From Candidatus Forterrea multitransposorum CG_2015-17_Forterrea_25_41 (lineage in GTDB: Archaea; Iainarchaeota; Iainarchaeia; Iainarchaeales; CSSED10-239): a DNA stretch of 64,000 nucleotides. Position numbers and translations under genes: made by a program. The first letter of the stretch is position 1, and each line of letters begins with the position of its first letter. Below the pieces are notes generated by a model, which was not told where the DNA came from, searched no databases, and saw only the letters and a list, made by a program, of their open reading frames with translations. The stretch spans positions 704,001 through 768,000 of the forward strand of contig CP045477.1 of NCBI GenBank assembly GCA_009392915.1. Reading direction: 5' to 3'. This document shows positions 19,229 to 49,925 of this stretch, piece after piece.

Positions 19229-19879
19229 ATGACAAAAAAAGAAAACAATTTAATGTATATTAAAATTCTTTTAGGTGCAATCTTAGCAGTTTTAGTTTTA
19301 TTATTAGTATTGAATCTATCAAACAATAATAAAACAGCAGATGCTTTTTTAAAAGAAACAACAAGTAAAACAGATAACCAAGCAAATCATTTTTTAGGAA
19401 ATGAAGATGCACCTTTAGTAATGTATGAATATTCTTCTTTTACATGTCCTTTTTGTAAAAGATATCAAATAGATGATCAAACTTTTGAAACTATTAAAAA
19501 AGAATATATAGATACAGGAAAAATTAAATATGTTTATCAACACTTTGTAAGAAACGAAATAGATATTAAAGCTGCAAATGCTGCTGAATGTGCAGGAGAA
19601 CAAGATATGTTCTTTGAATATAAAAAGAAACTTTATGAAAATCAAACAGATTTACCAAAAGAAGAATTTTCAAAGTATGCACAAGAACTTGATTTAGATG
19701 TTACAGCTTTTGAAAGTTGTCTTGCAGAAAACAAATATGTAAACAAAATAACACAAGATAAACAAGATGGTGTTAATAAAGGAATTAGTGGAACACCAGG
19801 ATTTATTGTTGGTAACCAAAGAATATCTGGTGCTCAAGACTATCAAGTCTTTAAAGCAGCAATAGATGAACAACTATGA
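19229..19879 (+). CDS. DsbA-like thioredoxin-fold thiol:disulfide oxidoreductase (membrane-anchored)
   Basis: N-terminal TM segment. CPFC active site in YSSFTCPFCKRYQ. Confidence 0.65.
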   Translation: MTKKENNLMYIKILLGAILAVLVLLLVLNLSNNNKTADAFLKETTSKTDNQANHFLGNEDAPLVMYEYSSFTCPFCKRYQIDDQTFETIKKEYIDTGKIKYVYQHFVRNEIDIKAANAAECAGEQDMFFEYKKKLYENQTDLPKEEFSKYAQELDLDVTAFESCLAENKYVNKITQDKQDGVNKGISGTPGFIVGNQRISGAQDYQVFKAAIDEQL

Positions 19880-21769: not shown

Positions 21770-22567
21770 ATGAATTCAAGATTTATAAATTTTTTTAAAC
21801 TTAATAAAGAAAAAAAAACTACATTACAACCAAAAATAAACTTTAGTTTAAAAAAAGCAATTAAAGGAAAAAAAGAAAAACTAGAAATTACAACTAAAGA
21901 AAATAAATATAAAAAAATAATGTATACTAAAAAAGCAAAAGACTTAATTAAAAATACACCTGGACTTTTAAGAGAGATTAGAGAATATTTAGAAGGTAAA
22001 AAATATAGGCCTAAAGTATACACTGTGTTTTTAAATAAAGAAAAAGTAAGACTTAGAATAGAAGAAATAAATAGACCTTCAAAAAACAGTATTTTAACAA
22101 ATAATTTTTATAAAATAGAAATTAAAGATGGAAAAGAAATCCATAAATTTTTTGTTAAAAAAAAGAAAATTACAACAAATACTCTTTGCTGCATAGGAAC
22201 TAGAGAAATGCAAGCTTTAGATATTATTAATCAAGCAGGATTTAATATTATTAAACCACATTTTGCATATAAAATAAAAGGAAAAGAAAGTTTTATTTTT
22301 TATGAGTATCAAGATAAAATAATTGATGCTGAAAAAGCTTTTCTTGAAAGAAAAATAAACTCTGAAGATGTTAAACAAATTTCAAGAAAATTAAATAATC
22401 TAGAAACAAGACTTAATGATTTTATAAAAGTAAAATATCCTAATGAAAATTTTAAAATCACAGATATTTCTTCAAGCACACAAAAAGAAAAACATGCTCT
22501 CCCTGTTTTTATTGATTTTGAAAACAAGAAACTATTTTTATTTGATCCAATACTTTCAAAAAATTAA
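21770..22567 (+). CDS. Hypothetical protein, paralogue of 784..1587
   Basis: See 784..1587. It has the conserved C-terminal LPVFIDFENKKLF[IL][YF]DP block. Confidence 0.5.
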   Translation: MNSRFINFFKLNKEKKTTLQPKINFSLKKAIKGKKEKLEITTKENKYKKIMYTKKAKDLIKNTPGLLREIREYLEGKKYRPKVYTVFLNKEKVRLRIEEINRPSKNSILTNNFYKIEIKDGKEIHKFFVKKKKITTNTLCCIGTREMQALDIINQAGFNIIKPHFAYKIKGKESFIFYEYQDKIIDAEKAFLERKINSEDVKQISRKLNNLETRLNDFIKVKYPNENFKITDISSSTQKEKHALPVFIDFENKKLFLFDPILSKN

Positions 22568-22571
22568 AAAA

Positions 22572-22600
22572 AAGTTGATTTCTTTTTAAAAAATCAACTT
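22572..22600. terminator. Perfect 10-bp-stem hairpin AAGTTGATTT-N9-AAATCAACTT between convergent genes
   Basis: It is followed by a T-run on the minus-strand side. The same GTTGATTT...AAATCAAC core also follows the pilin gene at 43881-43909. Confidence 0.5.
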
Positions 22601-22615
22601 AATTTAGTTTACTAC

Positions 22616-23113
22616 TTATTCATTCCAACCAAACTTATAACCTTGTGAAGTTACAATTTGGTTGTTTTTAATAGAATCAATATACAAGTAATATGTATCA
22701 CTACATTTATTATCATATCCTTCTAAAATAACATATCCTCTTACATCTTTATTCATTTTTGGATCAAGATATGCACCAGGAAAACCTACATTATCACTAG
22801 AAGTTACTTTTAATTCCATTAGGTTTGCAGAAGCATCTTTTAAATATACTTTATATCTTTGATCTTCTCCTTTAGGAACCCAATCAAAAGTAAAATATGC
22901 TTTATCACCTGCAACACAATCTTGATATTGCGCATTTACATTTATAATATAAGCAGGAAGAGGAGCATTATTACCTTGAGCAGTAATTTTAATTGCATCT
23001 CCTGTAGTAGTTAATGTAGTGGTTACAATTATTCCTAAGATTAATCCTAAGATTAAACCAAATAAACCATACACCATTATTTGTTTTTTATTTTTCATTT
23101 TTAAAAACCTCAT
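22616..23113 (-). CDS. Pilin-domain paralogue (secreted/anchored), homologous to 43929..44447 and to the N-terminus of 25654..30858
   Basis: C-terminal CSDTYYLYIDSIKNNQIVTSQGYKFGWNE versus CGDSYYLYIKTTKNNQTVTSQGYRFSWVD. The N-terminus is a hydrophobic anchor, not a clean G|Q-x3-E signal. Confidence 0.5.
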   Translation of the reverse strand: MRFLKMKNKKQIMVYGLFGLILGLILGIIVTTTLTTTGDAIKITAQGNNAPLPAYIINVNAQYQDCVAGDKAYFTFDWVPKGEDQRYKVYLKDASANLMELKVTSSDNVGFPGAYLDPKMNKDVRGYVILEGYDNKCSDTYYLYIDSIKNNQIVTSQGYKFGWNE

Positions 23114-23176
23114 TTTAATTTTTATAAATTATAATTAATTAAAGATATTGTTATAGAAAACCTTTATAAAATAAAC

Positions 23177-24337
23177 TTTTAAAAAAAAAGAAAGAAAACA
23201 AAATTGTGTTGCATAACTCTTTTTAAAAGTATTGTCTAACCTATTTTATTACTAGATAAAGGAGGTTAGACAATATGAATATTAAGAACGAAAAGATTAA
23301 TAAAAGGAACTGGTCAAAGATAAATTATGGAAAAACAAGACAAATCTTGTTTTTACTAGATAAAAACATTATTTTTAGTGAAAATGAAAGACTAGTTTCC
23401 CAAAATAAAAACAAACCAGGAAGACAATTTATATATAGTGATAGAATAATAGAACTATTAATTGATCTTAAAAATTATTTTAAATTTGATTATCGTAAAC
23501 TACAGGCATTCTGCCTGTTGTTTAATAATGTTATAAAAATAAAAACACCTGACTTTACAACTATTTGTAGAAGAATGCACAAATTAGAATTATTTCTAAA
23601 AAATATAAAAACAAAAAAAGAACCAACCTTTATAGCTATAGATGGTTCTGGACTTCAAACTACTAATCGAGGAGAATGGCTTAGATTAATACACAAAAAA
23701 GGAAAAATAAACTTAAGAAATGGATTTGTAAAATTAGTGATTGCAACAGATGTTGCATCTGGAGAAATAACTGGAGTGTATATTTCAGATGATTCTGATT
23801 TTGAAAATAAAAGCTTATCAGATTTATTATACCAAACAATAAATAATCAAAACCAAGAAGTCAAAGGACTTCTTGGAGATGGGGCATACGATTCTTATGA
23901 TAACTTTGATATGCTTGATGATATGGGAATAAAACCAATTATCAAAATCAGAAAGAATGCAATTACAACAGAACCTAATGACGATTATTTAAAAAGAAGA
24001 AGAAAACTTGGAAAAAAGAAAAAAATAAAAAGAATTGAAGTTGCAAAAAAGCAACTTAAAAATGTAGATGACTGGAAACAAAAAAATGAGTATAATAAAA
24101 GGTGGGTTGTTGAATACACGTTTAGTGTATTCAAAAGACTATTCGGACATAGTGTGTACTCTAAAAGAAAGAAATATGTCAAAAATGAAGTAATTTCTAA
24201 AGTAAATTTGTATAATAAATTATTAAATATCAATTAAGAAAAAAATAAAATGAATTAAAAAAAGAAATAAGCTAAAAATATTGTGTAAAACACAATATTT
24301 GTGCAACACAATTTTAAAAAAAAAGAAAGAAAACAAA
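23177..24337. mobile_element. IS-type insertion element with inverted termini (~TTGTGTTGCA, about 23204-23214 / 24301-24311), flanked by identical 26-bp direct repeats
   Basis: The direct repeat TTTTAAAAAAAAAGAAAGAAAACAAA lies at 23177-23202 and 24312-24337, immediately outside the inverted ends. Confidence 0.55.
23275..24237 (+). CDS. DDE transposase (IS4/IS5-like)
   Basis: Blocks IAIDGSGL, LLGDGAYDS and VVEYTFSVFKRLFG give the D, D, E/K pattern of IS4/IS5 transposases. The RBS AAAGGAGG is embedded in a 10-bp-stem hairpin TTGTCTAACC(23233-23242)/GGTTAGACAA(23264-23273). Confidence 0.6.
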   Translation: MNIKNEKINKRNWSKINYGKTRQILFLLDKNIIFSENERLVSQNKNKPGRQFIYSDRIIELLIDLKNYFKFDYRKLQAFCLLFNNVIKIKTPDFTTICRRMHKLELFLKNIKTKKEPTFIAIDGSGLQTTNRGEWLRLIHKKGKINLRNGFVKLVIATDVASGEITGVYISDDSDFENKSLSDLLYQTINNQNQEVKGLLGDGAYDSYDNFDMLDDMGIKPIIKIRKNAITTEPNDDYLKRRRKLGKKKKIKRIEVAKKQLKNVDDWKQKNEYNKRWVVEYTFSVFKRLFGHSVYSKRKKYVKNEVISKVNLYNKLLNIN

Positions 24338-25653: not shown

Positions 25654-28600
25654 TTAAACAGGGATTTGTACTCTTACAATTACAACTCCAGAACCACCTG
25701 AAAGACCTCTTGTACCACTACCAGAAGCTTTTCCATCCCCACCATTACCAGTATTTGGAGCACCTGCAGAACCACTATTTTCACGAGAATTACCTCCTGC
25801 AGCATAAATTACATTTGATCCAGTTATGTCATTTGAGGTACCAGGTCCTCCTACACCATATCCAGGAGGAGATGCCCAACAACTACCAGAACCTCCAGAA
25901 CCAGTACCACCTCTATTTTGAGGAGGACAAGCATAATTTGTAGAAGATGATCCTCCAGAACCTCCAGATGCTATTGTTCCATTAAAGAAAGAATACCCAC
26001 CTGCAGTTCCTGCTGTATTATAAGATCCACCAGATCCACCAGATCCCACTACAACATCATAAGTGTCAGCAGAACTGGATACAAGTCCATAATATCTATA
26101 TTGGCCGGCATTTCCACCATTACCATTATAACCACCACCACCACCACCACCGCCGACGACTAAGTATTCTAACATATACATTGGGAAGTCTATATTTATA
26201 GTGTAAGTTCCAGTACCACTTCTAAATTTATGAACACGGTATGCATAACCTCCTGAAATTCCCTCGGTTACTGTTGCTGTACCTGTGTGAGTAGTAATTA
26301 TTTTTCTAACCTTTAAAGTGTAGGTTGCAGAGGTTGCACCTTGTGTAACATTAACAGTAATTGTTTTTAAATTACCATCAGAAATGCTTATAGGGCTTGA
26401 TGCTGATCCAGATGAAACAGTTGAACCATTTACAGTTATTGTTCCAGTACCAGTAGGAGTTACAGTAATACTGTTAGTTGTACTAATTAAATAAAAAATA
26501 TCATTATAATTATATGTATTTGAATTAAAAGCAAATCCAGAAGGATTATTACTTAATTCTAAATTTGAAAGACCAGCAGGAATTGTTACGTTTATACTGC
26601 TTTGACTTCCCCAACAACCGTTTGTAGATCTTGCTCTAAAATAATAGGTGCCATTAGAATTTACTGTTTGAGGAGTGCCTCCTAAAGAGGTACTAGTACC
26701 CATTGATGTAGTTCCTTGGAAATATATAGTTCCACCTGAACCACCAGTTGCAGAAATGGTTGCAAACCCAGGACCACTATTTTGAAGAGATATACTTACA
26801 CTTCCTGGTTGAGAAAGTATAGTTGCAGTAACTGGAACTCTTGTTGTTAAATTACAAGTTCCGCCTGTCACTCCTACATAATAAGTTGTTGTCCAATTTA
26901 GAAGTGGAGTTGTAAAACTATTTCCTGTTGCAATTGGAGAACCACCAGTTGATGAAGTATACCATTCAATAGTTCCGCTTGTTGTAGTTGCACCTAAAGT
27001 TACAGAACCATTACCACATCTTTCTCCAGGAGTAACATTTACTGTTGGTGGAGATGCAATAGTCACTGTTTTTGAAACACAACTTGTTGTATTACAAGTA
27101 CCTGAAAGTCTTGCATAATAAGTTGTAGTTGAGGTTGGACTTACAGTTAAACTTGAAGAAGATCCTAATGAAATTGCAGTCCCACAAGTTCCAGCATACC
27201 ATTGATATGTAGCACCAGTTCCAACAGTTCCACCTATTGCAGTTAAAGTAGTTGGAGATCCAGAACATACACTTGTATTTCCAGTAATTGAGGTTGGAGC
27301 AACTGAAGGTGTATTAAATGAAACAGTTGCACTTCCTTGAGTACCCCAAGTACCAGAAGTAGATCTTGCTCTAAAATAATAAGTTCCAGGACTTGAAACA
27401 ACTTCTGATGTTGAAGCATTCATTGTACTGGTACCATTAGAAGTTGTGCCTTGATAATAAATTGTTCCATTAGCACCACCAGTTGCAGTTAAAGTTGCAT
27501 TAGCATTACAAGTTGCCCCACCACCTAAAACAGTTACTGGATCAGGAGTTATATCTACATTATAATAACCTTGAACTAAATCACTTGAAGTCCATCCTGT
27601 TTTATAAGCAATTGCTTTTAATGGAGTTGGAGAGTTAATTAAAACACTTTCTCCATGATTAATAACATTTACTCCACCTTGAACAGGTGTAGAGTTGTCT
27701 AAAGTATAACTGATTTGTGCTCCAGGCACAGAAGTAATAACTACATTTTGTGCAGTTGAATAAGTTCCAGGTAAAGGACTAAAGGTTGGTGAATTTAGTT
27801 TAAAAGTATAATCTGCTTGAGAAACAGAACTTTCAAGATAACCAGACTTGTAAACTATTGCTTTTAAAGTTTGATTTCTGGTTACAGGGATTGAAGTTCC
27901 GAGATATTGAGTTGAACTTGATGTTGGAGTATCACCATTGGTTGTGTAATAAATACTATAAGGAAGAGGAGTTGTAGTTGATAGATCTACAAAAATATTA
28001 TTATTGTATGTTCCTGAAGGACTTGAGAAAGTAGCAGGATTTGCAATTAATTGAACAGTGAAAGTTTGTGTGGCAACAGGACTGGTTGAATAACCAAAAG
28101 CATAACAAACTGCTTTTAAAGTTGTAGTGGATGTAAAATTAATTGGAGAAGAATAAACTGTTCCATCATCTCTTGTTGGATCAGTTCCATCAGTTGTATA
28201 TCTTATGGTGCTTGAAGGTGTGGAACAACTTAAAGTAACATTAACACTATTTGTGTGGGTTCCACCGTTTGGTGAAAAGGTAGGAGTTGCAGCAGGAGCA
28301 TTTATAGTGTAAACACCAGTTGAAACATCACTTGAAGTCCAACCTGTTTTGTAAGTGATTGCACGTAAAGTAGAGGTTGAAGTGATTGGAACAGTTGACT
28401 CTCCACTATTGATTTGTGTACCAGTTGTCTGTGTTGGAGTTGCTCCATTTATAGTGTATCTGATTTGGGCACCAGCAACAGAAGTTATTGCTACAGATTG
28501 AGAATCTGAATATGCACCAGGAGAAGGACTAAAGGTTGGTGCATTTAATTTGAAGACATAATCTGCTTGAGTGACAGAACTTGCAAGATAACCAGGCTTA

Positions 28601-30858
28601 TAAACAATTGCTTTTAAAGTTTGATTTCTGGTTACAGGGATTGAAGTTCCGAGATATTGAGTTGAACTTGAAGTTGGAGTATCTCCATTTGTTGTATAAT
28701 AAATACTATAAGGAAGAGGAGTTGTGGTTGATAGGTCGACAAAAATATTATTATTGTATGTTCCTGAAGGACTTGAGAAAGTAGCAGGACTTGCAATTAA
28801 TTGAACAGTGAAAGTTTGTGTAGCAACAGGACTGGTTGAATAACCAGAAGCATAACAAACTGCTTTTAAAGTTGTAGTGGATGTAAAATTAATTGGAGAA
28901 GAATAAACTGTTCCATCCTCTCTTGTTGGATCAGTTCCATCAGTTGTATATCTTATGGTGCTTGAAGGGGTTGTACAACTTAAAGTTACATTAACACTAT
29001 TTGTAAAAGTACCACCGTTTGGACTAAAGGCAGGAGTTGCAGCAGGAGCATTAATAGTATAAACACCAGTTGAAACATCACTTGAAGTCCAACCTGTTTT
29101 GTAAGTGATTGCACGTAAAGTAGAGGTTGAAGTGATTGGAACAGTTGACTCTCCACTATTGATTTGTGTACCAGTTGTCTGTGTTGGAGTTGCTCCATTT
29201 ATAGTGTATCTGATTTGGGCACCAGCAACAGAAGTTATTGCTACAGATTGAGAATCTGAATATGCACCAGGAGAAGGACTAAAGGTTGGTGCATTTAATT
29301 TGAAGACATAATCTGCTTGAGTGACAGAACTTGCAAGATAACCAGGCTTATAAACAATTGCTTTTAAAGTTTGATTTCTGGTTACAGGGATTGAAGTTCC
29401 GAGATATTGAGTTGAACTTGAAGTTGGAGTATCTCCATTTGTTGTATAATAAATACTATAAGGAAGAGGAGTTGTAGTTGATAAATCAACAAAAATATTA
29501 TTATTATAAGTTCCTGAAGGAAGAGAAAAGATTGCAATATTAGCAGGAAGAGTAACATTATAATCTGCTTGAGATATTGGACCGGTATTTGAACCTACAG
29601 CTGCCATTGCCTTAATAGTTACAGGAGATGATATGTTAATTGGACTTGAATAAACTGGACTTAAAAGAGTAGGATCAAAACCACTTGTGGTATAATGAAT
29701 AGTTGCACCAGGATTTGAATTACTTAAAGTAATATTTTGTATTGTAGAATAATCTCCTGCAGGAGGATTAAAAATAATAGGATCTAAAGGTACAAAGAAA
29801 CTATAAGTAAAAGTTGAAACTGAACTATCATTATAATTTTCTCTACAAGCAATTGCTTTTATGGTAGAGTCTGCAGAAACATTTATTGGAGAAGTATATT
29901 CTGAAAAGCTACCTGAACAATCAGGAATAGAAGAATCTAAAGTATAATAAATAGTTGAAGAAGAGGTTGCACTTGAAAGAACAACATTAATTGGATCTTC
30001 TAAATTTATAGAACTATCAGGAGTTGCAGTTACTGAAGATACAGTATCATAAGAAACTGTGTAAGTTCCAGAAGCAATTCCAGATTTAACACTGTTATAT
30101 TCAGAATATGCCATAATAGTTGTTCCAGGACTAATTGAAATAGGAAGCCCTAAAGTATAAGGTATACCGCTAGTATAAGGATCACTACCATCTATTGTAT
30201 AATAAACAGAAAAACTTGGATCAGATACATCTAAAGTTATAGTTGATGGAAAAGAAAAATAATTATAAGAACCAGGAACAGGATTAAATAATGGTCTTGA
30301 AATCACTGTTGTTTTAGGACCACTATCAGACCAATTAAAAGAATATCTAGAAGATTTTTTGGATTGATTATTTTTTGAAACTTCTATAGATAAATAATAA
30401 GAATCTCCACAAGAACCATTACCTAAATCAATATCTGAAACAATTAAATTATTTGTAATAATTGGATTTAAGTTATCTTCGGGAATAATATTCCCATCTA
30501 AAATAACAGTGTAATCTCCCTCATTTAAAACATCATTATCTTTATTTTCAATAATTAATTTATAAGTACCCTCTCTCGATAAAGGTTTCCAAGAAAAAGA
30601 TAAAAGCCCAATTTTTCTTAAAGTTCCACCTACATCAATAGTTTCACAATCTAAATAATTAGCTTTAACAGAAGTTATTGTTGGAGGTAAAGGACCATCA
30701 GTTGAAGAAGAAACATCATCAACTTGTTCTGATGCTGAATCTCTTGATTGACCACCTAGAGAAACTAAAATAGTTACAATAATTACAGCAACTAATACAC
30801 CACCACCAATCAATATTAAAGTTTCTAAATTACCTTGACCTTTTTTTGATGGTAGCAT
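25654..30858 (-). CDS. Giant (1734 aa) pilin-signal adhesin-like protein: class III signal plus pilin domain, chitobiase-C-type repeats (tandemly duplicated), Ig-like repeats and a Gly-rich C-terminus
   Basis: N-terminus MLPSKKGQGNLETLILIGGGVLVAVII...GGQSRDSA...CGDSYYLSIEVSKNNQ is homologous to the 43929 pilin. Repeats carry IRYTTDGTDPT motifs. Ig-like repeats carry C..G..TLTA.GG...YQWY...TYYAR..G.C. The tail has GGGGGGGG and further Gly-rich segments. Confidence 0.6.
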   Translation of the reverse strand: MLPSKKGQGNLETLILIGGGVLVAVIIVTILVSLGGQSRDSASEQVDDVSSSTDGPLPPTITSVKANYLDCETIDVGGTLRKIGLLSFSWKPLSREGTYKLIIENKDNDVLNEGDYTVILDGNIIPEDNLNPIITNNLIVSDIDLGNGSCGDSYYLSIEVSKNNQSKKSSRYSFNWSDSGPKTTVISRPLFNPVPGSYNYFSFPSTITLDVSDPSFSVYYTIDGSDPYTSGIPYTLGLPISISPGTTIMAYSEYNSVKSGIASGTYTVSYDTVSSVTATPDSSINLEDPINVVLSSATSSSTIYYTLDSSIPDCSGSFSEYTSPINVSADSTIKAIACRENYNDSSVSTFTYSFFVPLDPIIFNPPAGDYSTIQNITLSNSNPGATIHYTTSGFDPTLLSPVYSSPINISSPVTIKAMAAVGSNTGPISQADYNVTLPANIAIFSLPSGTYNNNIFVDLSTTTPLPYSIYYTTNGDTPTSSSTQYLGTSIPVTRNQTLKAIVYKPGYLASSVTQADYVFKLNAPTFSPSPGAYSDSQSVAITSVAGAQIRYTINGATPTQTTGTQINSGESTVPITSTSTLRAITYKTGWTSSDVSTGVYTINAPAATPAFSPNGGTFTNSVNVTLSCTTPSSTIRYTTDGTDPTREDGTVYSSPINFTSTTTLKAVCYASGYSTSPVATQTFTVQLIASPATFSSPSGTYNNNIFVDLSTTTPLPYSIYYTTNGDTPTSSSTQYLGTSIPVTRNQTLKAIVYKPGYLASSVTQADYVFKLNAPTFSPSPGAYSDSQSVAITSVAGAQIRYTINGATPTQTTGTQINSGESTVPITSTSTLRAITYKTGWTSSDVSTGVYTINAPAATPTFSPNGGTHTNSVNVTLSCSTPSSTIRYTTDGTDPTRDDGTVYSSPINFTSTTTLKAVCYAFGYSTSPVATQTFTVQLIANPATFSSPSGTYNNNIFVDLSTTTPLPYSIYYTTNGDTPTSSSTQYLGTSIPVTRNQTLKAIVYKSGYLESSVSQADYTFKLNSPTFSPLPGTYSTAQNVVITSVPGAQISYTLDNSTPVQGGVNVINHGESVLINSPTPLKAIAYKTGWTSSDLVQGYYNVDITPDPVTVLGGGATCNANATLTATGGANGTIYYQGTTSNGTSTMNASTSEVVSSPGTYYFRARSTSGTWGTQGSATVSFNTPSVAPTSITGNTSVCSGSPTTLTAIGGTVGTGATYQWYAGTCGTAISLGSSSSLTVSPTSTTTYYARLSGTCNTTSCVSKTVTIASPPTVNVTPGERCGNGSVTLGATTTSGTIEWYTSSTGGSPIATGNSFTTPLLNWTTTYYVGVTGGTCNLTTRVPVTATILSQPGSVSISLQNSGPGFATISATGGSGGTIYFQGTTSMGTSTSLGGTPQTVNSNGTYYFRARSTNGCWGSQSSINVTIPAGLSNLELSNNPSGFAFNSNTYNYNDIFYLISTTNSITVTPTGTGTITVNGSTVSSGSASSPISISDGNLKTITVNVTQGATSATYTLKVRKIITTHTGTATVTEGISGGYAYRVHKFRSGTGTYTINIDFPMYMLEYLVVGGGGGGGGYNGNGGNAGQYRYYGLVSSSADTYDVVVGSGGSGGSYNTAGTAGGYSFFNGTIASGGSGGSSSTNYACPPQNRGGTGSGGSGSCWASPPGYGVGGPGTSNDITGSNVIYAAGGNSRENSGSAGAPNTGNGGDGKASGSGTRGLSGGSGVVIVRVQIPV
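27571..29820 (-). repeat. Tandem 750-bp (250-aa) in-frame coding repeats, about 2.3 units near-identical at the DNA level, inside the giant adhesin gene
   Basis: tgaaacatcacttgaagtccaacctgtttt recurs at 28321 and 29071. Hundreds of bp are identical between 27790-28560, 28321-29070 and 29071-29530. Confidence 0.7.
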
Positions 30859-41159: not shown

Positions 41160-41522
41160 TTAAATACATTCTAAACTAATACTAATATTATCAAACTTTG
41201 TTCTATCTAACAAACCATTAGTTAGTGTTGTGTAATTATAATCATCAGGAACTATTGGACAATTAGTTTCAAGTCCTTTATTTAAATAAACAATCATATC
41301 TAAGTTATCATTATCAAATACATAATTAATAGTGTTAATTGAATAAGAATGATTATATCCAGCGATATATTTTAATGTTAAATTTTTTGTTTTATGCATA
41401 GCAATATTAATATCAAAAGTTGATGTTAAAGTTGCAACTACAGTTATAGCTATAACCATTACAATTAAAAGAATAATTAAAAACTCTAAACTAGTTTGAG
41501 CTTTTTTATCTTGAAGCAACAT
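41160..41522 (-). CDS. Minor pilin (class III signal)
   Basis: MLLQDKKAQTSLEFLIILLIVMVIAI: A|QTSLEF. Confidence 0.55.
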   Translation of the reverse strand: MLLQDKKAQTSLEFLIILLIVMVIAITVVATLTSTFDINIAMHKTKNLTLKYIAGYNHSYSINTINYVFDNDNLDMIVYLNKGLETNCPIVPDDYNYTTLTNGLLDRTKFDNISISLECI

Positions 41523-41982
41523 CTATATCTCCAGCAATAGTTTTTTCAACAACTAAATAATTATTAAACCCTGGTCCAACTTCATCACAAGTAAAATCTA
41601 CATCTCCAATAGATACTAATTTTTCAAAAGTACAGATGTTTGTAGTAGAATCACATGCAGAGATATTAGGTTTAGGATTTTGAGAAGAAATTGATATTTG
41701 GTATTCAATAATGTTTGTTGCAGAATCACAGTTTATAATTTTTGCATTATCAGGAAGATAAAAATAAACTAATCTTTTACCATATCCAGGAGAACTTGCA
41801 AAAGATGCTAAATCATCTCCAAGTTTATCAATAGATTGTTTTGTTTGAGTAATATTATAAATATCACCTACAATATTTTCTGAAAAAACAATATTTGGAT
41901 ATATGATTGCTTGAAAAAATAATAATAAAATAGATATTAAAATAATGTATTCAATTGCAATTTGTCCTTTTATATTTTTCAT
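41506..41982 (-). CDS. Minor pilin (class III signal)
   Basis: MKNIKGQIAIEYIILISILLLFF: G|QIAIEY. Confidence 0.55.
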   Translation of the reverse strand: MKNIKGQIAIEYIILISILLLFFQAIIYPNIVFSENIVGDIYNITQTKQSIDKLGDDLASFASSPGYGKRLVYFYLPDNAKIINCDSATNIIEYQISISSQNPKPNISACDSTTNICTFEKLVSIGDVDFTCDEVGPGFNNYLVVEKTIAGDIDVASR

Positions 41983-42013
41983 TTAAAATTCCTTCCTTTT
42001 ATATTATTTAAGC

Positions 42014-43135
42014 TTAAAAAATAAACCAAATAAAATCTCCAAAAATATTTAATAAAATATACGCTATTAACACAGAAGGGGTAAATGGAATTGTTTTTTT
42101 TAAAACTATCTCCTTCTCTAAATTATGTTTATATGAACTCTTTAAAAAGGTTATGTCTTCAGGTAAAAGACCCCCTATTTTCCTAGAATCTATGATTAGT
42201 TTATTTGATTTTTGTTTAGAGGTATATTCTTTTAAATAATCAATAAAGGATATTTTTTTTTCAATAACTTTTTTATTTGATAAATAATAATTATTTAAAA
42301 CAACATCTCCTTCTTTTAAATCATTTATTTTTTTACTAAAAGTTAATATCTTTGAAGAAATTATTTTATAAAAAGTTATACTTAAGAAAATAATAATAAT
42401 AGTTATAGTAATTATTAATAAATCATAGAAAACAAATATTCTTTTTGAATAAAACAAAGAATATCCAATTAATAATAAATAAAGCCCTAAAACTAAATAA
42501 TTATAGTGAAGAATATTTTGTTTTTCAATTTTTCTAAAAAACAAGATAAACATTATAGATAATAAAAAATAAATTAAAAAAGGGATATACATTTCAAAAA
42601 TATTAAAAAAAGAAGAAATTAAGAAAAGTATTAAAATAGAACTTACTAAAGAAAATAATGTGTTTTTTGTTTTTAATAAATTTATAAGTATTCTATAGTG
42701 TCTTTTAAATATAAATAAATAAATAGAACTAATTAAGAGAATAGGTGCTGTAGAAAGAATAGCAGTTAGTATTAAAGTCAAAGAAAATACAGGGATTGTT
42801 ATTATTTTAAAAGAAAATAAAAAGCCTAAAAAATTAATATTAAAAGGATTTAAGAAAGAAATTGCAGAAAACAACTTTAAATCACCACCTGCAAAGAAAC
42901 CAAACTCCCAAAGAACATACCCTACAATAAAGGTTATACCAAAAGATAAAAAAGCATTAAGAAGAATAGATATTTTTGAGAAATAAATTGTTTCTATTAT
43001 TTTAAAAATAACTCCAATAATTAATAAATATAATACTAAAAAATTTGGAACAATTCTTTTTTTAATATCATAATAACTTGCAAATAATAAAAATATCAAA
43101 GTTATTGAAAATGCAAAAAAAGGAAAGTTAAACAT
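42014..43135 (-). CDS. Prepilin peptidase (A24 family, PibD/FlaK/TadV-like) with an about 130-aa C-terminal extension
   Basis: Asp23 in SYYDIKKRIVPN. Second Asp in FFAGGDLKLF (GxGD-type). Multi-TM. 373 aa versus the typical ~250. Confidence 0.6.
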   Translation of the reverse strand: MFNFPFFAFSITLIFLLFASYYDIKKRIVPNFLVLYLLIIGVIFKIIETIYFSKISILLNAFLSFGITFIVGYVLWEFGFFAGGDLKLFSAISFLNPFNINFLGFLFSFKIITIPVFSLTLILTAILSTAPILLISSIYLFIFKRHYRILINLLKTKNTLFSLVSSILILFLISSFFNIFEMYIPFLIYFLLSIMFILFFRKIEKQNILHYNYLVLGLYLLLIGYSLFYSKRIFVFYDLLIITITIIIIFLSITFYKIISSKILTFSKKINDLKEGDVVLNNYYLSNKKVIEKKISFIDYLKEYTSKQKSNKLIIDSRKIGGLLPEDITFLKSSYKHNLEKEIVLKKTIPFTPSVLIAYILLNIFGDFIWFIF

Positions 43136-43160
43136 ACATTATTTTCTCAACAAAAATTAT

Positions 43161-43349
43161 TTATAAAGAAGCTAAAATATTATCTCTATAAGTTAATATT
43201 TTAGATTTTGCAACAGTTATAAAACTATTTAAATTTAATATAACAATACCTGTTGTAATTACTAAAATCATACCAAAAACAATCATGATTAGATATTCAA
43301 TAGAGACTTGACCTCTTTGGTCATTTAAAAGTAAATTTAATCTATTCAT
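43161..43349 (-). CDS. Flp-size pilin (62 aa)
   Basis: NDQRGQVSIEYLIMIVFGMILVI: G|QVSIEY. Confidence 0.55.
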   Translation of the reverse strand: MNRLNLLLNDQRGQVSIEYLIMIVFGMILVITTGIVILNLNSFITVAKSKILTYRDNILASL

Positions 43350-43372
43350 AATATATAATCACTAAATCTTAA

Positions 43373-43840
43373 TTACCTTGCAACACATGAAGATGCAGGA
43401 GTTGATGGTCTTGAATGAACATTATTTTTAACAGTTATAACTGATACTTCATACTCTGTTCCAACTGAATCTACAGATAAATCACTTGCAGGAACCTGTA
43501 AAATACTAGTGCCTTCTTGAACATATAACACATCTGTTCCTGATGGATAAGGATCATTATTATCTATTTTTATTCTATAACCTGTATTTGGAGCTGAAGA
43601 TACTAAATTAATAGTTACATTTCCACTTGCAACACAATCAACACTTGTAACAATTGGTGGAACTAAAGTATTATCTAAAATAGTTGTAATAGCTTCATCT
43701 TGCTGCAAAGCAGCTTCTCTATTAGAAGCATTCATATTAGTTATTAAAATAATCACAGAAATTGCAATAATTATAGTAGCACCAATCAAAAGCAAATATT
43801 CCATTGCTCCTTGTCCTTTTTGTTTTTTTAAAAATGTCAT
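43373..43840 (-). CDS. Pilin with C-terminal beta domain
   Basis: KKQKGQGAMEYLLLIGATIIIAI: G|QGAMEY. Confidence 0.6.
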   Translation of the reverse strand: MTFLKKQKGQGAMEYLLLIGATIIIAISVIILITNMNASNREAALQQDEAITTILDNTLVPPIVTSVDCVASGNVTINLVSSAPNTGYRIKIDNNDPYPSGTDVLYVQEGTSILQVPASDLSVDSVGTEYEVSVITVKNNVHSRPSTPASSCVAR

Positions 43841-43880
43841 AAATTACCATCTTTCTTTTAAAAATAAAAAAATAAAATAA

Positions 43881-43909
43881 AGTTGATTTTTTTTAAAAAA
43901 AAAAATCAA
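43881..43909. terminator. Hairpin GTTGAT8-A11TCAAC between the first long pilin gene and the downstream pilins (candidate attenuator/terminator)
   Basis: GTTGATTTTTTTT...AAAAAAAATCAAC lies 20 nt after the stop of 43929..44447. It shares the GTTGATTT/AAATCAAC core with 22572-22600. Confidence 0.5.
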
Positions 43910-43928
43910 CCTATTTTTAATTAACTAC

Positions 43929-44447
43929 TTAATCAACCCAACTAAATCTATAACCTTGAGATGTTACTGTTTGGTTATTCTTTGTTGTTTTAATATATAA
44001 GTAGTAAGAGTCACCACATTTGTTACCACTATTTAAAGTTAAATCCACATTTAAACCGTTAACTTCATTTGGATTTAAATCTGTTTCATCAATTGTCTCT
44101 AAACCAGAATTATCTGTTAATGAATCTATTGTTAATTCATTATTACTTGAATCCATGATATATAACTCGTGACTTCCACCTTCACCTAATGGTCTCCAAG
44201 AGAAATTTAAGTCAGCAGTTAATGCAGTTGAATCACATGCATCATATGCAGCAACAACTTGTACAATTTGTGATGGTTGAGGAACGTCTGTTGCTTGATT
44301 TGCTTTTTCAGCTTGAGCAGCAGCAGAGTCTCTTGATTGTCCACCCATACCTACAAGTAATGCAATAACAATAACAGCAATTAATACTGCACCACCAATT
44401 AAAAGAAGATACTCAAGAGCACCTTGTCCTTTAAATTTTTTATTCAT
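43929..44447 (-). CDS. Pilin (172 aa) with conserved C-terminal CGDSYYLYI..KNNQ..SQGY.F.W domain
   Basis: MNKKFKGQGALEYLLLIGGAVLIAVIVIALLV: G|QGALEY. Confidence 0.65.
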   Translation of the reverse strand: MNKKFKGQGALEYLLLIGGAVLIAVIVIALLVGMGGQSRDSAAAQAEKANQATDVPQPSQIVQVVAAYDACDSTALTADLNFSWRPLGEGGSHELYIMDSSNNELTIDSLTDNSGLETIDETDLNPNEVNGLNVDLTLNSGNKCGDSYYLYIKTTKNNQTVTSQGYRFSWVD

Positions 44448-44579
44448 TTTTAAACACCTTTTTTATATTTTTTAAACATCACACATAAAGTGTATAACTA
44501 ATAACTTGTACTAGTTAAATTAATTAAAATATTACATACAATATATTTATATATGTTTCTTTTCAATATTTCAAACCAA

Positions 44580-44753
44580 TTAACTATTATTAACTATTGA
44601 TTGATAGTCAGTTGCAGTCTTAACATTCTTTGCAGAAGTTTGTTTTACAAAAATTCCAACAGTTAATGCAACTAATATAACAACTCCAGTAATAATTATA
44701 AACTCTAAAGAAACCTGTCCTTTATTATCTTTTATTAATCTTCTTAATTTCAT
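44580..44753 (-). CDS. Short Flp-type pilin, 57 aa (not in ORF track; candidate major pilin)
   Basis: Reverse-strand ORF: ATG at 44751-44753, stop at 44580-44582. MKLRRLIKDNKGQVSLEFIIITGVVILVALTVGIFVKQTSAKNVKTATDYQSIVNNS. G|QVSLEF motif. Confidence 0.55.
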   Translation of the reverse strand: MKLRRLIKDNKGQVSLEFIIITGVVILVALTVGIFVKQTSAKNVKTATDYQSIVNNS

Positions 44754-44755
44754 AT

Positions 44756-45652
44756 CTAAACCATTCCTGAAAGCATTAAATTAAGTATTACTTGAGAAAT
44801 AAAATATACTATATATCCAATAGTAATTAATACAGGGAAAAATAAAACTACAAAGCTTAAATCTCCTTCTCTCATAACACTTATCATTGATGCAGCAGCA
44901 AATATTTCAATAACAATATAAATATCTAAAAGTAAAAAGATTGTTTTTTGAGCATCTAAAGAAACTTGTAAAGCCTCTGCTGCTGCAATTCCTGAATTTA
45001 CAGCTATATCTGTTAAAAAACCAGTAATTACTCTTGTCATTCCAAAAATAAATGGAGCCACAATTGCAGAAGCAGCAACAATAAAAATTGTTTGAAGCAT
45101 TGTTTTTGTTTGTCTTTCCTTTTTAACCCTGAACAATTGTTTAGTGTCATTTGCAATTTCTTCTAAAACATCAGCTAATTGTGCACCTGTTCTTAAAGAT
45201 TCTTGAATTAAAGTAATAGTTCTTCTTACAATTTTAGATTCAATTCTTAAAGCTAAATAACTTAAAGCAACATACATTGAATCTCCCATTTCAAGTCTTC
45301 TAATAGCTTCATTAATTTCAAAAGAAAGGGGTCCGAAATCAGCAGTGGATACTTCTCTTAAAGCAAAATCAAATGAAGAACCAGCCTTCATTGTGTCTGC
45401 AATTAACTTTAAAGAATCTGGCCAATATCTTTCAATTTCTCTTATTTTTTTAAAATAAAGATACATTGGAAGACCTAAACCTAAAACTAAAGCATTTACA
45501 AATAATAAAAGTCCGATCTTTATATCTAAGAAATAACCGATTATCCCTAAGAATATACTTGCAAAAAATATTAAAACAATCCATATTTTTGCAGGAATCT
45601 TTATTTTTAAAGCATATAAAAATACTTGATATCTGTCTAATCCTTTACTCAA
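44756..45652 (-). CDS. TadC/FlaJ-like platform protein (single T2SS-F domain)
   Basis: About 6 TM with a cytoplasmic helical domain. It pairs with 45659..46804. Confidence 0.55.
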   Translation of the reverse strand: MSKGLDRYQVFLYALKIKIPAKIWIVLIFFASIFLGIIGYFLDIKIGLLLFVNALVLGLGLPMYLYFKKIREIERYWPDSLKLIADTMKAGSSFDFALREVSTADFGPLSFEINEAIRRLEMGDSMYVALSYLALRIESKIVRRTITLIQESLRTGAQLADVLEEIANDTKQLFRVKKERQTKTMLQTIFIVAASAIVAPFIFGMTRVITGFLTDIAVNSGIAAAEALQVSLDAQKTIFLLLDIYIVIEIFAAASMISVMREGDLSFVVLFFPVLITIGYIVYFISQVILNLMLSGMV

Positions 45653-45658
45653 ATTAAA

Positions 45659-46804
45659 TCACATTTTTGGTTCAATCATTTTAATATAATATACTAAAAA
45701 GATGAATATTATTGGTAGTGCTACTGCAAAAATTAAAGTTAATGTTGTTGGTGTCATAACTCCTGGTAAAAACAAAGATCCATCTTGTCCTAGAGGAGCA
45801 TTTGCAATTGCACCTAAAATTGCAGCAAATACAGGCATAACAATAGCCATGAAAATAAAAATAATTCCAAAGAAATTCATTTTTTCTCCGAATGTTTTAG
45901 TAGATTCTAAAAGATCAAAAGATACTGTGTCTGCAACACTATTAATTGTGCTTGCCAAATTACCACCTGTATTTAATGTTCTAACAATGTGGAAAAGTGC
46001 AATGTTATAATTTTTAGATTGACTTCTTAATGCAGAATGTCTTAAAGCTGTTTTTGTATCAGTACCATTTTCAATTTCTAAGATGGTTCTATTCATTTCT
46101 TCTGATAATACACCATAATCATTTGCAGCAACAGATTGTAATACTTTATAAAGACCAATACCTGCTTGAAGTTCTGTTGCAATATGTCTTAAAGCAAATG
46201 GAAGTTCAATATCAATATAGACTCCTCTGGATTTTGCTTTTTGCATTGGAATAACATATGAAAGAATAAAAACAAATACTAAAAATAAAATTGGCCAAAT
46301 AAAAAGGATACTAACTGTCCATAAAGGCATAGTTGCAACAAAAATAATTAATAATAAAAAAGATAAAAAACTTGCAATCAATAAAGAAAATATAGTTGAA
46401 AGAACTAAATGTTGTACTAATGTTCTTTTATAGTTTGCAGAGGTTAAATAATAAGATATTTTTTTACCTAAAGAATTCTTTAAAATATATAAAACCACAG
46501 AATCAACTAATTTTTTAAAAGGTTTATAATATTTAGCAGCACTTTTTTCAAGAGTACCTTCTGTATTTGCAGCTAATTTATTTTCAGCATCAACATCAAA
46601 CTGAGAAAGTCTACCTTGAGAAATTACTTCTCTTAGTTCTTTTAAATGACCTTCAGATAAAGATTCAGATGTAATATTTTTGTCCTTTTCTTTCATTTTT
46701 TTAACAATATTTTGAACAGCATCTAAATCTACATCTAAGTCGTCTTTCTTGGATTTATTTTTTTCTAAATCACTTTTTAAAAGTTCTAATTTTTTTGAAT
46801 CCAT
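45659..46804 (-). CDS. TadB/FlaJ-like platform protein (single T2SS-F domain)
   Basis: ELPFALRHIATELQAGIGLYKVLQSVAANDYGVLSEEMNRTILEIENGTDTKTAL is T2SS-F-like. Confidence 0.6.
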   Translation of the reverse strand: MDSKKLELLKSDLEKNKSKKDDLDVDLDAVQNIVKKMKEKDKNITSESLSEGHLKELREVISQGRLSQFDVDAENKLAANTEGTLEKSAAKYYKPFKKLVDSVVLYILKNSLGKKISYYLTSANYKRTLVQHLVLSTIFSLLIASFLSFLLLIIFVATMPLWTVSILFIWPILFLVFVFILSYVIPMQKAKSRGVYIDIELPFALRHIATELQAGIGLYKVLQSVAANDYGVLSEEMNRTILEIENGTDTKTALRHSALRSQSKNYNIALFHIVRTLNTGGNLASTINSVADTVSFDLLESTKTFGEKMNFFGIIFIFMAIVMPVFAAILGAIANAPLGQDGSLFLPGVMTPTTLTLIFAVALPIIFIFLVYYIKMIEPKM

Positions 46805-46840
46805 TAAAATCTTTTTTTTAATTTATTTTAAATATATATA

Positions 46841-48856
46841 CTATCTTTTTAGTATATATTCTTTTTGGACTTCATGTGCAACATCATTAATAGCCCTAAT
46901 TTTCTTAGAACGTAAATCTTCAAGGATTTTTGCTCTATCACTAATTTTATTTAAAATATCTTGATCATTTAAGTTTGTGTATGTTTTAATTAAATCAAAG
47001 TAAAGAATAGGTTCTTTAGTTCTTTCAAGAGAATCTGTTTCAGGATTCCAAACAAAGACCATATTTATCTTTGGATCTCCATCTAACACACCCATAATCT
47101 CTGCAATTGCAGTAATTCTTCTAACTTGTCCTTTTGAAGTTCTTAATCTTTTTTGAATAATTATAAAATCAATTCCTGCAAGCATTAATGGAGGAACATC
47201 CATTGGTGGTGAAGTTAATCTTACAATTGTTTCTTTTGCAGAATTTGCGTGCACTGTACCCATACAACCATCGTGACCAGTGTTCATGGCAGTGAAAAGA
47301 GTAGTTGCTTCTTTGTGTCTAATTTCACCTACAACTATTCTATCAGGTCTCATTCTTAAAGTGTTTTTAGTTAAGATTTCTAAACTTAATTCACCTTTTC
47401 CTTCTAGGCCTGGTGGTTTTCCTTCAAATCTAATTACATGCTTTATAGGAAGTCTTAATTCCGCAGTGTCTTCAATTGTTAATATTCTGTCTGCTTCTGG
47501 AATAAAGTTTGCAAGAACATTTAATGTAGTTGTTTTTCCAGAACCAGTACCACCTGAAATTAAAATATTTGCAGGTTTTGCACCAAATCCTTCAACAACA
47601 CACCACAAAAATGCAGCTACTTCTAAATTAAGTGTTTTAAAGTTTATTAAATCAACTATAGTGTAAGGATCATCTCTGAACTTTCTAATAGTAACTGTAG
47701 AACCATCAATTGATGCTGGAGGCACAGTAGCATTTACACGAGAACCATCTGGAAGTCTTGCATCTAAAAGAGGATTTGAAATATCTACACTTCTTCCTAA
47801 AGATCTTGCAATTTTATCAATAATATCATTAATTCCATCATCTGAAAAGAAAATAATATTTGTTGTCATCATTCCATAATCTACATGGTAAACATATACT
47901 GGTTTTTTAGGACCAACAATCATAATTTCTTCTAATTTGTCATCTTCAAGTAATGGTTCAATCACACCATAACCAGTCATTTCTTTAACAACTGCATCTG
48001 CATAAAAAGGATAAAGATGTTTTGGGATATTTATTTCTTGTGCAGTTTCTAAAATATCAATTACTTTTTGATAATATATGTTTTTTCTTTGAAGAGGATC
48101 TCTTATTTTATAAGGATCAGAAGCAACAAGTCTTGTGGTTGCTTCTTTTAAAGTATTAATTATAATTTTTTGACTAGGATTTGGTTTTGGAACAGGAACA
48201 GAATAGTGTAATATAGATTGAGTGTCAAGTCTATAAATTTTAACTTCACCATATTTTGTAACTAATGTAGCCCCATCAATTTTTTCTTCTTGTTTTTCAA
48301 AAGCAGAATCTCCTTTTGTTTCAGAAAGTTCTGAAGATTTTATTTCTGAATTAGTATTAAGTGCTTTTAATTTTGAAAGGGCATCAAGTTTATTTTGTTT
48401 TTGTGTATCTGTATCAAAAACAGAATCTTTATCATCTTCAATTAATTTTTTTTCTTTTTCAGATAAATCACCAATATCTAATGTTTTTGATTTTTCTTGA
48501 GAGTCTTGTTTTTCAGCATTTTTTGCTTTTAATCTTTCAAATAAAGAATCTTGTGATTCTGTTGAATTTACTTTTTCTTGTTTTTTAGAAGAATCAAATT
48601 CAGATAAATCCATTATTTTTTTGTTTTGTGTAAAAGAAGATGGCTCTTGTGATTTATTGTGAGAATCAACATCAACAGATTTTTTTTCAAAAAAGTTATC
48701 TTGCTTTAAAGTTTCTTTTTTAGAATCTAGAGAAATTTCTTCTTTCTTTTCAGGTGCATTTTCAGCAGCTTTTCTAGCTTCTTCTTTTTGTTTATCTTTT
48801 TCTAAACTATATTTTCCAACTAAATCATCAATATATGAGGGCATAAAATTATTCAC
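46841..48856 (-). CDS. Pilus assembly ATPase (FlaI/TadA/GspE family) with a disordered K/E/S-rich N-terminal region of about 230 aa
   Basis: ILISGGTGSGKTTTLNVLANFI (Walker A), ILTIEDTAELRL (Asp box) and a His box region. Confidence 0.8.
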   Translation of the reverse strand: MNNFMPSYIDDLVGKYSLEKDKQKEEARKAAENAPEKKEEISLDSKKETLKQDNFFEKKSVDVDSHNKSQEPSSFTQNKKIMDLSEFDSSKKQEKVNSTESQDSLFERLKAKNAEKQDSQEKSKTLDIGDLSEKEKKLIEDDKDSVFDTDTQKQNKLDALSKLKALNTNSEIKSSELSETKGDSAFEKQEEKIDGATLVTKYGEVKIYRLDTQSILHYSVPVPKPNPSQKIIINTLKEATTRLVASDPYKIRDPLQRKNIYYQKVIDILETAQEINIPKHLYPFYADAVVKEMTGYGVIEPLLEDDKLEEIMIVGPKKPVYVYHVDYGMMTTNIIFFSDDGINDIIDKIARSLGRSVDISNPLLDARLPDGSRVNATVPPASIDGSTVTIRKFRDDPYTIVDLINFKTLNLEVAAFLWCVVEGFGAKPANILISGGTGSGKTTTLNVLANFIPEADRILTIEDTAELRLPIKHVIRFEGKPPGLEGKGELSLEILTKNTLRMRPDRIVVGEIRHKEATTLFTAMNTGHDGCMGTVHANSAKETIVRLTSPPMDVPPLMLAGIDFIIIQKRLRTSKGQVRRITAIAEIMGVLDGDPKINMVFVWNPETDSLERTKEPILYFDLIKTYTNLNDQDILNKISDRAKILEDLRSKKIRAINDVAHEVQKEYILKR

Positions 48857-49838: not shown

Positions 49839-49925
49839 AATTAATCACTCTATTTTATATTTTTATAATTAATATAGTAATACAATATATTTATAATACT
49901 TTTTAAAAAAACAACTTAATTTAAA

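Follow-up and report, generated by a model that had tools for sequence, protein, structure and literature searches.

Archaea of the DPANN group live attached to host cells. The archaellum includes FlaF and FlaG, unprocessed, membrane-anchored beta-sandwich proteins that are related to archaellins, and in bacteria the genes for major fibre subunits are followed by intrinsic terminators composed of a hairpin and a U-tract, or by 3′ stem-loops. An Epd-like ‘system 1’ of archaeal type IV filaments has been reported from methanogens and DPANN archaea (bioRxiv 10.64898/2026.04.22.720090), and a ‘modular pilin’ design has been described in bacteria, for example for PilB and PilC of Streptococcus sanguinis (PMC8179133). 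Here we compare these systems with a 64-kb stretch of archaeal DNA (positions 704,001 to 768,000 of contig CP045477.1; "the window" hereafter means this whole stretch), in which three minus-strand genes carry the same pilin-type domain: the pilin gene of a type IV pilus operon (43929–44447, the operon pilin), a gene for a giant protein (25654–30858) and a short gene (22616–23113) which gives its name to the 22616-type paralogues. The first and last of these are followed by hairpins with the same arms. The explanation that we favour, to which we give a probability of about 0.6, is that the genes belong to one archaeal pilin family, that the pilin gene has the hairpin as a conserved part of its 3′ flank, and that the 22616-type gene acquired it by secondary transfer of the pilin flank.

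A preliminary description of this DNA had linked the three genes through a C-terminal signature, and the proposed common domain was borne out by BLASTP. The products of 22616 and the operon pilin are 35% identical over 149 aa (E = 3e-23), the operon pilin and the N-terminus of the giant protein are 44% identical (E = 1e-42), and 22616 matches the N-terminal 200 aa of the giant protein with E = 2e-14. A multiple alignment of the three domains confirmed the similarity and showed that it spans the entire globular domain of about 120 residues and not the C-terminus alone, with two invariant cysteines and the conserved pattern P.P..I..V...Y.DC ... F.W.P ... C.D.YYL.I...KNNQ...S..Y.F.W. The signature needed repair: its literal form matches nothing, having one position too many after KNNQ and admitting only Ser or Thr where 22616 has Ile, and the corrected form, C[GS]D[ST]YYL[YS]I..[STI]KNNQ...S..Y.F.W.[DE], matches exactly the three family sites in the six frames of the window. 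The genes are genuine paralogues, united by a single pilin-type domain. No fourth full copy was found in the window by six-frame tblastn, and the neighbouring pilin at 43373–43840 resembles the family only in its signal-peptide region.

The family is small and lineage-restricted, with 323 matches when proteins are clustered at 90% identity; clustering at 50% leaves 94 representatives with E ≤ 1e-3 out of 1.8 billion proteins. AlphaFold models show a sandwich resembling that of fibronectin type III (FN3). Membership of FN3 takes a match to the sequence family as well as seven strands that form a beta-sandwich with the FN3 topology; the domain has no Pfam fn3 match, and what distinguishes it from FN3 is an additional pair of conserved cysteines together with a long stretch inserted between its central strands. 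Profile searches for a known pilin or adhesin fold recovered the class III signal family PF04021 on the operon pilin. For the FN3-like head with its CGDSYY...KNNQ signature no Pfam model was matched, and a PDB sequence-profile search with the pilin domain returned nothing under E 0.02, leaving the domain without a solved sequence relative. We would describe the family as archaeal type IV pilin modules that pair a hydrophobic helix at the N-terminus with an FN3-like beta-sandwich as head and have been put to three uses. The two cysteines, invariant in every member, could form a disulfide; a DsbA/thioredoxin-like gene lies at 19229–19879, about 3 kb from the 22616 gene, and is named from its 98.7% identity to a gene with Pfam Thioredoxin_4/DSBA matches in L002 (labels of this form denote related loci).

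The first use is that of a filament subunit. A class III signal has a short basic leader, Gly or Ala at −1 and a hydrophobic helix, and in this family also Gln+1 and Glu+5. The operon pilin scores 29.3 bits against PF04021 (Class_IIIsignal; cut-off 23.7) and reads FKG/QGALEYLLLIGG; the signal that it shares with the giant protein, KGQG(A/N)LE, has Gly−1, Gln+1 and Glu+5. Its AlphaFold2 model (mean predicted local distance difference test score, pLDDT, 89) has the ‘lollipop’ architecture, with a helix at residues 10–53 and an eight-strand sandwich, and the Foldseek matches of this model include archaeal FlaF/FlaG and an archaellin. Genes for an ATPase, two platform proteins and a prepilin peptidase adjoin it, in an arrangement that is syntenic in six relatives (L001 and L086–L090). 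The layout fits the Epd-like system 1, with which it shares the ATPase, both platform genes, the short pilins of Epd-like type and an A24 peptidase of its own. The protein itself shares the KG/Q...E+5 motif, hydrophobic helix and beta-sandwich head with archaeal type IV pilins (PF04021/UPF0333, Epd-like loci), and its database homologues are already called ‘class III signal peptide-containing protein’. What sets the family apart from those pilins is the CGDSYY...KNNQ head, which is restricted to a small Iainarchaeota-type family, and a 22616-type member without the signal peptide. The operon pilin is a canonical class III pilin, presumably cut by the adjacent A24 peptidase and polymerised into a filament.

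The pilin at 43373–43840, just downstream of the hairpin, diverges far more rapidly than the other proteins of the operon, being only 35–55% identical between genomes whose platform proteins are 82–86% identical. Its C-terminus (YEVSVITVKNNVHSRPS) hints at a remote FN3-like kinship with the family.

In the giant protein the same module acts as a carrier. Alignment places its signal at KKG/QGNLETLILIGG, matching the motif of the operon pilin; there was no PF04021 match to the giant protein at E ≤ 0.01 in Pfam. The pilin module is followed by 11 CHB_HEX_C_1/Fn3_assoc repeats, two Ig_7 domains and a Gly_rich_2 domain (Pfam), that is, by domains which are not pilus-specific, and the protein is in this sense a modular pilin. 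It is like PilB and PilC of S. sanguinis in joining an N-terminal pilin module to such domains, but differs from them in being archaeal, with an archaeal-type class III signal and an FN3-like module, in being much larger and in being encoded 13 kb away from the pilus operon. A further difference lies in its three tandem, near-identical internal repeats of 750 nt (250 aa), at 27700–29950, with 87% DNA identity. The module bears adhesin-type repeats that run to some 1500 residues and are presumably exposed along a pilus or at its tip. The L002 orthologue is only 76% identical, against 95–99% for neighbouring genes, which indicates that the giant adhesin is evolving rapidly. Related pilin modules stand at the N-terminus of other proteins of 400–1400 aa with differing cargo, namely RCC1 propellers, PKD plus laminin-G, or CHB_HEX_C_1 repeats, which suggests a shuffling ‘pilin-display’ toolkit in these archaea. 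In the relatives P0125, P0131, P0132 and P0136 the module heads RCC1-like beta-propellers with InlB B-repeats, or PKD plus laminin-G/ConA-like lectin domains.

The 22616 protein has kept the domain and not the signal. Its N-terminus is KKQIMVYGLFGLILG, without Gly−1 and Glu+5; the aligned signal positions read KKQIMVY, with Lys for Gly−1 and Tyr for Glu+5, and Pfam gave no PF04021/Class_IIIsignal match. It is a pilin homologue by its globular domain and not a class III pilin by its signal. Translation probably begins at the second ATG (23098), because this is preceded by GAGGT at the same spacing as GGTG before the ATG of the operon pilin. In the AlphaFold2 model (pLDDT 81) a helix at residues 9–34, shorter than that of the operon pilin, leads through a low-confidence linker to the same sandwich. 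Orthologues at 93, 58 and 55% identity were found, and all four have the same non-class-III N-terminus (YGLFGL..G.ILGI.VTT), with KRKIILY and KKNIITY among their signal positions. The gene is under purifying selection: its open reading frame is intact, and the ratio of nonsynonymous to synonymous substitution rates (dN/dS) against the 93% orthologue is 0.27. The clade of 22616-type proteins is monophyletic and lies outside the operon-pilin clade in a neighbour-joining tree (118 columns); the subfamily looks old. The gene is 21 kb from the pilus operon, the remote orthologues occupy unrelated neighbourhoods with neighbours that vary between genomes, and one of the 55–58% orthologues is found in two independent samples alongside a pilin that shares 79% identity with that of the window. 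The preliminary description was right that the signal is abnormal, but of its two words for this copy, decaying and repurposed, the second is the better. The 22616-type would be an old, conserved offshoot that has lost the peptidase site (Gly−1) and the assembly residue (Glu+5). The protein most likely escapes processing and stays in the membrane as a bitopic protein with its FN3-like ectodomain on a Thr-rich stalk. FlaF and FlaG offer an analogy only: the 22616-type likewise has an N-terminal transmembrane helix without a prepilin-peptidase site and a pilin-derived beta-sandwich ectodomain, but differs in having no sequence relationship to them and in lying outside the filament locus, among variable neighbours.

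Both the operon pilin and the 22616 gene end in a hairpin, which starts 14–17 nt past the stop codon on the sense (minus) strand and is followed by a run of T. The preliminary description had correctly found the same arms at both places, although it put the second hairpin off by one position (the stem is 43880–43912). The arrangement GTTGATTT-N(3-25)-AAATCAAC occurs at 22574–22598 and 43882–43910 only (arms of the pilin hairpin, 43882–43889 and 43903–43910), with 0.00 expected from 100 shuffles of the 64 kb. Folding energies are −11.4 and −13.6 kcal/mol, compared with about −4 ± 2 for shuffles, and 10 and 9 of the 12 nt after the stems are T. Each is thus terminator-like, a stable stem-loop with a U-rich tract just past the stop codon; the remaining terminator-like hairpins of the window all have other arms. 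A scan with the bacterial terminator rule, which demands at least three G-C pairs, is uninformative here and overlooks these AT-rich stems. The convergent gene 21770–22567 ends inside the T-tract of the 22616 module. There were no other sites of the paired motif in 90 related loci, so that the arms are not a common feature of unrelated sites in the material searched. A metagenome scan for GTTGATTT-N(3-25)-AAATCAACTTT matched at least 120 unrelated contigs with a median GC of 37%, which are chance AT-rich palindromes and silent on genome-wide frequency; none of the matches listed encodes a pilin relative. The flank of gene 49926–50927 (49851–49925) contains AAATTAAGTTG-T7-AAAAAG, a sequence similar to the spacer of the 22616 hairpin and to its first arm. 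With an alignment score of 45 it is the second-best of 61 flanks; it has no second arm, and we treat it as chance.

The hairpin is conserved well beyond the window. In 13/15 pilin orthologues a stem of at least 10 bp lies no more than about 17 nt from the stop codon, and 9–11 of the 12 nt behind it are T; such a stem is present in only 14% of 202 control flanks of open reading frames. Mean folding energies are −11.0 kcal/mol for the orthologue flanks and −5.2 for the controls (Mann-Whitney p = 4e-6). In an alignment of 12 flanks all 106/106 cells of a nine-pair consensus stem are paired, and 5/9 pairs have changed on both sides in a compensatory manner. The covariation score is 0.633 versus 0.25 after shuffling (0/500 shuffles reach 0.633), and slid controls are 37–46% paired. 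The few G.U cells are compatible with the sense RNA alone. Throughout the clade, then, the pilin gene has kept a hairpin and T-tract as its 3′ element. Since the stem is kept by covariation even though archaeal termination generally needs no hairpin, a role in termination efficiency and/or 3′ stability of an abundant mRNA is suggested. The element is most likely an efficient terminator and/or 3′-end stabiliser, and as such would set the level of pilin mRNA independently of downstream genes and stop read-through into convergent genes. It is like the terminators of bacterial fibre genes in being a stable stem-loop right after the stop codon with a U-tract behind it, in being enriched at the pilin versus other genes, and in lying within an operon ahead of lower-abundance components. 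From archaeal U-tract terminators (PMC8716108) it differs by a stem conserved with covariation in a DPANN lineage, and from known terminators generally in that one lineage-specific version of this putative terminator is common to two unlinked paralogues.

How did two distant paralogues come to share it? The 3′ flanks of 22616 and the operon pilin are homologous beyond the arms: flank-to-flank local alignment scores 61, against a background of 21.9 ± 7.9 (61 flanks of open reading frames) and a maximum of 43 in 2000 shuffles, and the 22616 flank, from the stop codon through the next 14 nt (TAAGTAGTAAACTAAAT), is identical, 17/17, to the pilin flank of L001 and L086. The GTTG(A/G)TT arms are found only in the clade of the window, L001 and L086, whose pilins are at least 91% identical. 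Arms of the form ATATAG(C/A) or ATATGG stand behind pilins at 51–82% identity, with ATATAGC or ATATGG already present in those at 77–82% (L087, L090, L007, L088) and again in the remoter L008–L010 and L013. By parsimony the ATATAG arms would be ancestral and GTTGATT derived. Because pilins at 77–82% identity already have different arms, the shared derived arms post-date the gene duplication. The 22616-type orthologues at 55–58% identity have neither the GTTGATT module nor the GTAGTAA spacer and bear an unrelated 8-bp hairpin, CTTTGAAA...TTTCAAAG, with a T7 run (L004 10515–10545; L006 1893–1925). That hairpin, identical in both genomes, falls within the coding sequence of a convergent TYW3 gene, at its 3′ end. 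That two genes share derived arms and a spacer is best accounted for if the pilin 3′ flank was transferred or homogenised later; a relic of duplication is unlikely, since arms turn over fast and the two proteins have no more than 35% identity. On the simplest account, ectopic recombination or gene conversion over a short tract would have copied the pilin flank onto the 22616-type gene in the recent ancestor of the window, L002 and L003. The hairpin arms evolve quickly through compensatory change.

An insertion sequence (IS) does adjoin the 22616 gene, as first described. Its transposase (23275–24237) matches DDE_Tnp_1 (E = 3.8e-22) and DDE_Tnp_1_5 (E = 3.5e-13) in Pfam, and 22-nt terminal inverted repeats, 86% complementary, lie at 23200–23221 and 24294–24315. 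The 19-nt direct repeat AAAAAAAAAGAAAGAAAAC flanks it (23181–23199, 24316–24334); this is longer than a usual target-site duplication and may derive in part from promoter-region repeats seen in relatives. The close relatives L002 and L003 lack the IS and carry an unrelated gene for a 304-aa membrane/secreted protein at the exact site (L002 4694–5708), of which there is no remnant in the window bar the first 12 codons, which belong to the 22616 gene. The insertion leaves the 22616 gene and its 86-nt upstream region undisrupted. In the relatives the 304-aa gene and the 22616-type gene share their first codons (MRFLKMK) as well as roughly 85 nt of the sequence in front of them (compared regions: L002 4690–4800 and 5706–5815; window 23096–23199), and the 5′ end of the locus has therefore also been duplicated or homogenised.

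The arms shared by 22616 and the operon pilin have been read in other ways. The preliminary description took them to imply duplication of a gene plus its terminator, both copies having kept the original hairpin since the paralogues arose. The truly homologous flanks agree with this, as do the equal distance of the hairpin from the stop codon in both genes and the age of the TAAGTAGTAA spacer in the pilin lineage; yet the arms turn over far faster than the proteins, as the ATATAGC/ATATGG arms of near and far pilins show, and neither the low identity of the paralogues, nor the different 3′ flanks of the 55–58% orthologues, nor the position of the 22616-type clade outside the pilins is what such an origin would leave behind. 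We consider co-duplication unlikely, if the least so of the alternatives. A reading that we find quite unlikely makes the stem-loop a post-transcriptional control element of an Iainarchaeota pilin regulon, with the 22616-type as a pilin-derived, FlaF/FlaG-like membrane component that serves host contact or the base of the pilus; the stem-loop sequence could be recognised by a nuclease or RNA-binding factor specific to the lineage and could be kept identical on the operon pilin and the 22616-type paralogue for co-regulation. Recognition might also take place on DNA, with the palindrome as operator for a dimeric transcription factor that co-regulates both loci, for example acting on the next pilin at 43840. 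A perfect palindrome does lie 41–70 nt upstream of the start codon of that pilin, and one trans-acting factor could account for identical sequence at two loci, but at the 22616 locus no gene of the same orientation follows and a convergent gene ends 4 nt away. The orthologues, moreover, keep the stem and not the sequence, as expected of RNA structure, with the compensatory pairs noted above, G.U cells that pair on the sense strand alone and a T-tract that always follows the stem, so that an operator seems very unlikely.

Two further readings start from the nearby IS, and we hold both to be barely credible. The hairpin might be a small mobile or repeated palindrome, akin to repetitive extragenic palindromes or miniature inverted-repeat transposable elements, that landed independently behind both genes; apart from the IS, this gains from a mild enrichment of the 8-mer GTTGATTT in the window (17 copies versus 7 expected). 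It loses more from the count of just two paired copies in the 64 kb, with none at other sites in 90 related loci, from a homology that takes in the non-palindromic spacer by the stop codon, and from orthologue alignment, in which the element sits where the ancestral pilin hairpin does. Alternatively, 22616 could be a pilin pseudogene in decay, its signal having degenerated once the neighbouring IS had disrupted it, for which one may cite the missing class III motif and an insertion 86 nt upstream of the annotated start. Intactness and constraint of the gene speak against decay, as do the same N-terminus in orthologues from IS-free genomes, the retention of the promoter-proximal 86 nt at 96% identity to the relative's, and a fold that is confidently predicted.

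Several points weigh against the pilin-family and flank-transfer explanation that we prefer. The 22616-type clade sits on a long branch, and its deep placement could be inflated by fast evolution in a neighbour-joining tree of 118 columns. The check for further hairpin copies covered 64 kb from this genome and some 52 kb from its close relatives. In archaea U-tracts, with aCPSF1, generally suffice for termination without a hairpin (PMC8716108), and Epd-like systems often use short pilins, so the major subunit need not be the operon pilin (bioRxiv 10.64898/2026.04.22.720090). The coding 3′ ends, too, are without lineage-specific excess, the last 90 nt being 0.73–0.78 identical to all pilins; any conversion tract would therefore measure just about 50 nt and start near the stop codon, in the conserved last codons. 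A conversion reaching into the coding region was dropped as a candidate, the last 90 and 45 nt and the third codon positions showing no excess similarity to the window's own pilin.

Table 1. Coordinates of the pilin-family genes, their 3′ modules and associated features, numbered from the first nucleotide of the window.
Feature	Position	Strand	Description or basis
Operon pilin	43929..44447	-	class III signal peptide FKG/QGALE, long N-terminal helix, FN3-like head, two invariant Cys
3′ module of operon pilin gene	43841..43928	-	spacer, stem-loop 43880-43912, T-rich tract; next pilin start at 43840
Giant modular pilin, 1734 aa	25654..30858	-	Pfam, alignment
Class III-like signal and FN3-like pilin module of giant protein	30304-30858	-	residues 1-180
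22616-type paralogue	22616..23113	-	N-terminal membrane anchor without prepilin-peptidase site, Thr-rich linker, FN3-like ectodomain
3′ module of 22616 gene	22560..22615	-	14-nt spacer GTAGTAAACTAAAT, 13-bp stem-loop 22572-22600, T-tract
IS element, IS4/IS5-type	23200..24315	+	DDE transposase 23275-24237, 22-nt imperfect terminal inverted repeats
Type IV pilus operon (Epd-like, ‘system 1’), including operon pilin	41160..48856	-	Pfam, synteny
ATPase (T2SSE)	46841-48856	-	Pfam
Platform genes, two (T2SSF)	45659-46804, 44756-45652	-	Pfam
Short pilins	44580-44753, 43161-43349	-	pilus operon
Further pilin	43373-43840	-	pilus operon
A24 prepilin peptidase (Peptidase_A24 + Arc_PepC)	42014-43135	-	Pfam
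Additional class III proteins	41506-41982, 41160-41522	-	pilus operon

The window comes from an Iainarchaeota-like DPANN archaeon. Its archaeal gene content includes an RFC small subunit and the A24 peptidase with its Arc_PepC domain, and the closest public relative, contig NPID01000561.1 (GCA_015657875.1), is syntenic with proteins 90–99% identical. Remoter pilin relatives sit on metagenome-assembled genomes labelled Candidatus Iainarchaeum, ainarchaeum or Diapherotrites (DPANN). The GC content of the 64 kb is 26%. A sigma-70 promoter scan of the window returned 111 promoter-like sites versus 114 expected and is uninformative at this GC content in an archaeon. No tRNA genes were found in the 64 kb, and Rfam gave zero family matches across the whole window.

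All parts of the locus belong to known kinds: an archaeal type IV pilin family, a modular pilin, a terminator-like stem-loop and an IS. Current understanding is refined in its annotation and not overturned, with two mildly new details, an unannotated subfamily of pilin-derived membrane proteins and a covarying 3′ stem-loop shared via secondary transfer. The former brings a gain in annotation to a 22616-type family that is currently ‘hypothetical’ and has no Pfam match. The latter provides a covariation-backed case of a bacterial-style hairpin and U-tract in an archaeon, where hairpins are thought unneeded, and one in which a non-coding 3′ flank appears to have been homogenised between distant paralogues. 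The locus offers a compact picture of one pilin module reused as filament subunit, as carrier of a giant adhesin and, probably, as a membrane-retained derivative. Surface filaments and adhesins are likely organs of host contact in DPANN archaea, and the locus gives candidates for the attachment of these organisms to their hosts.

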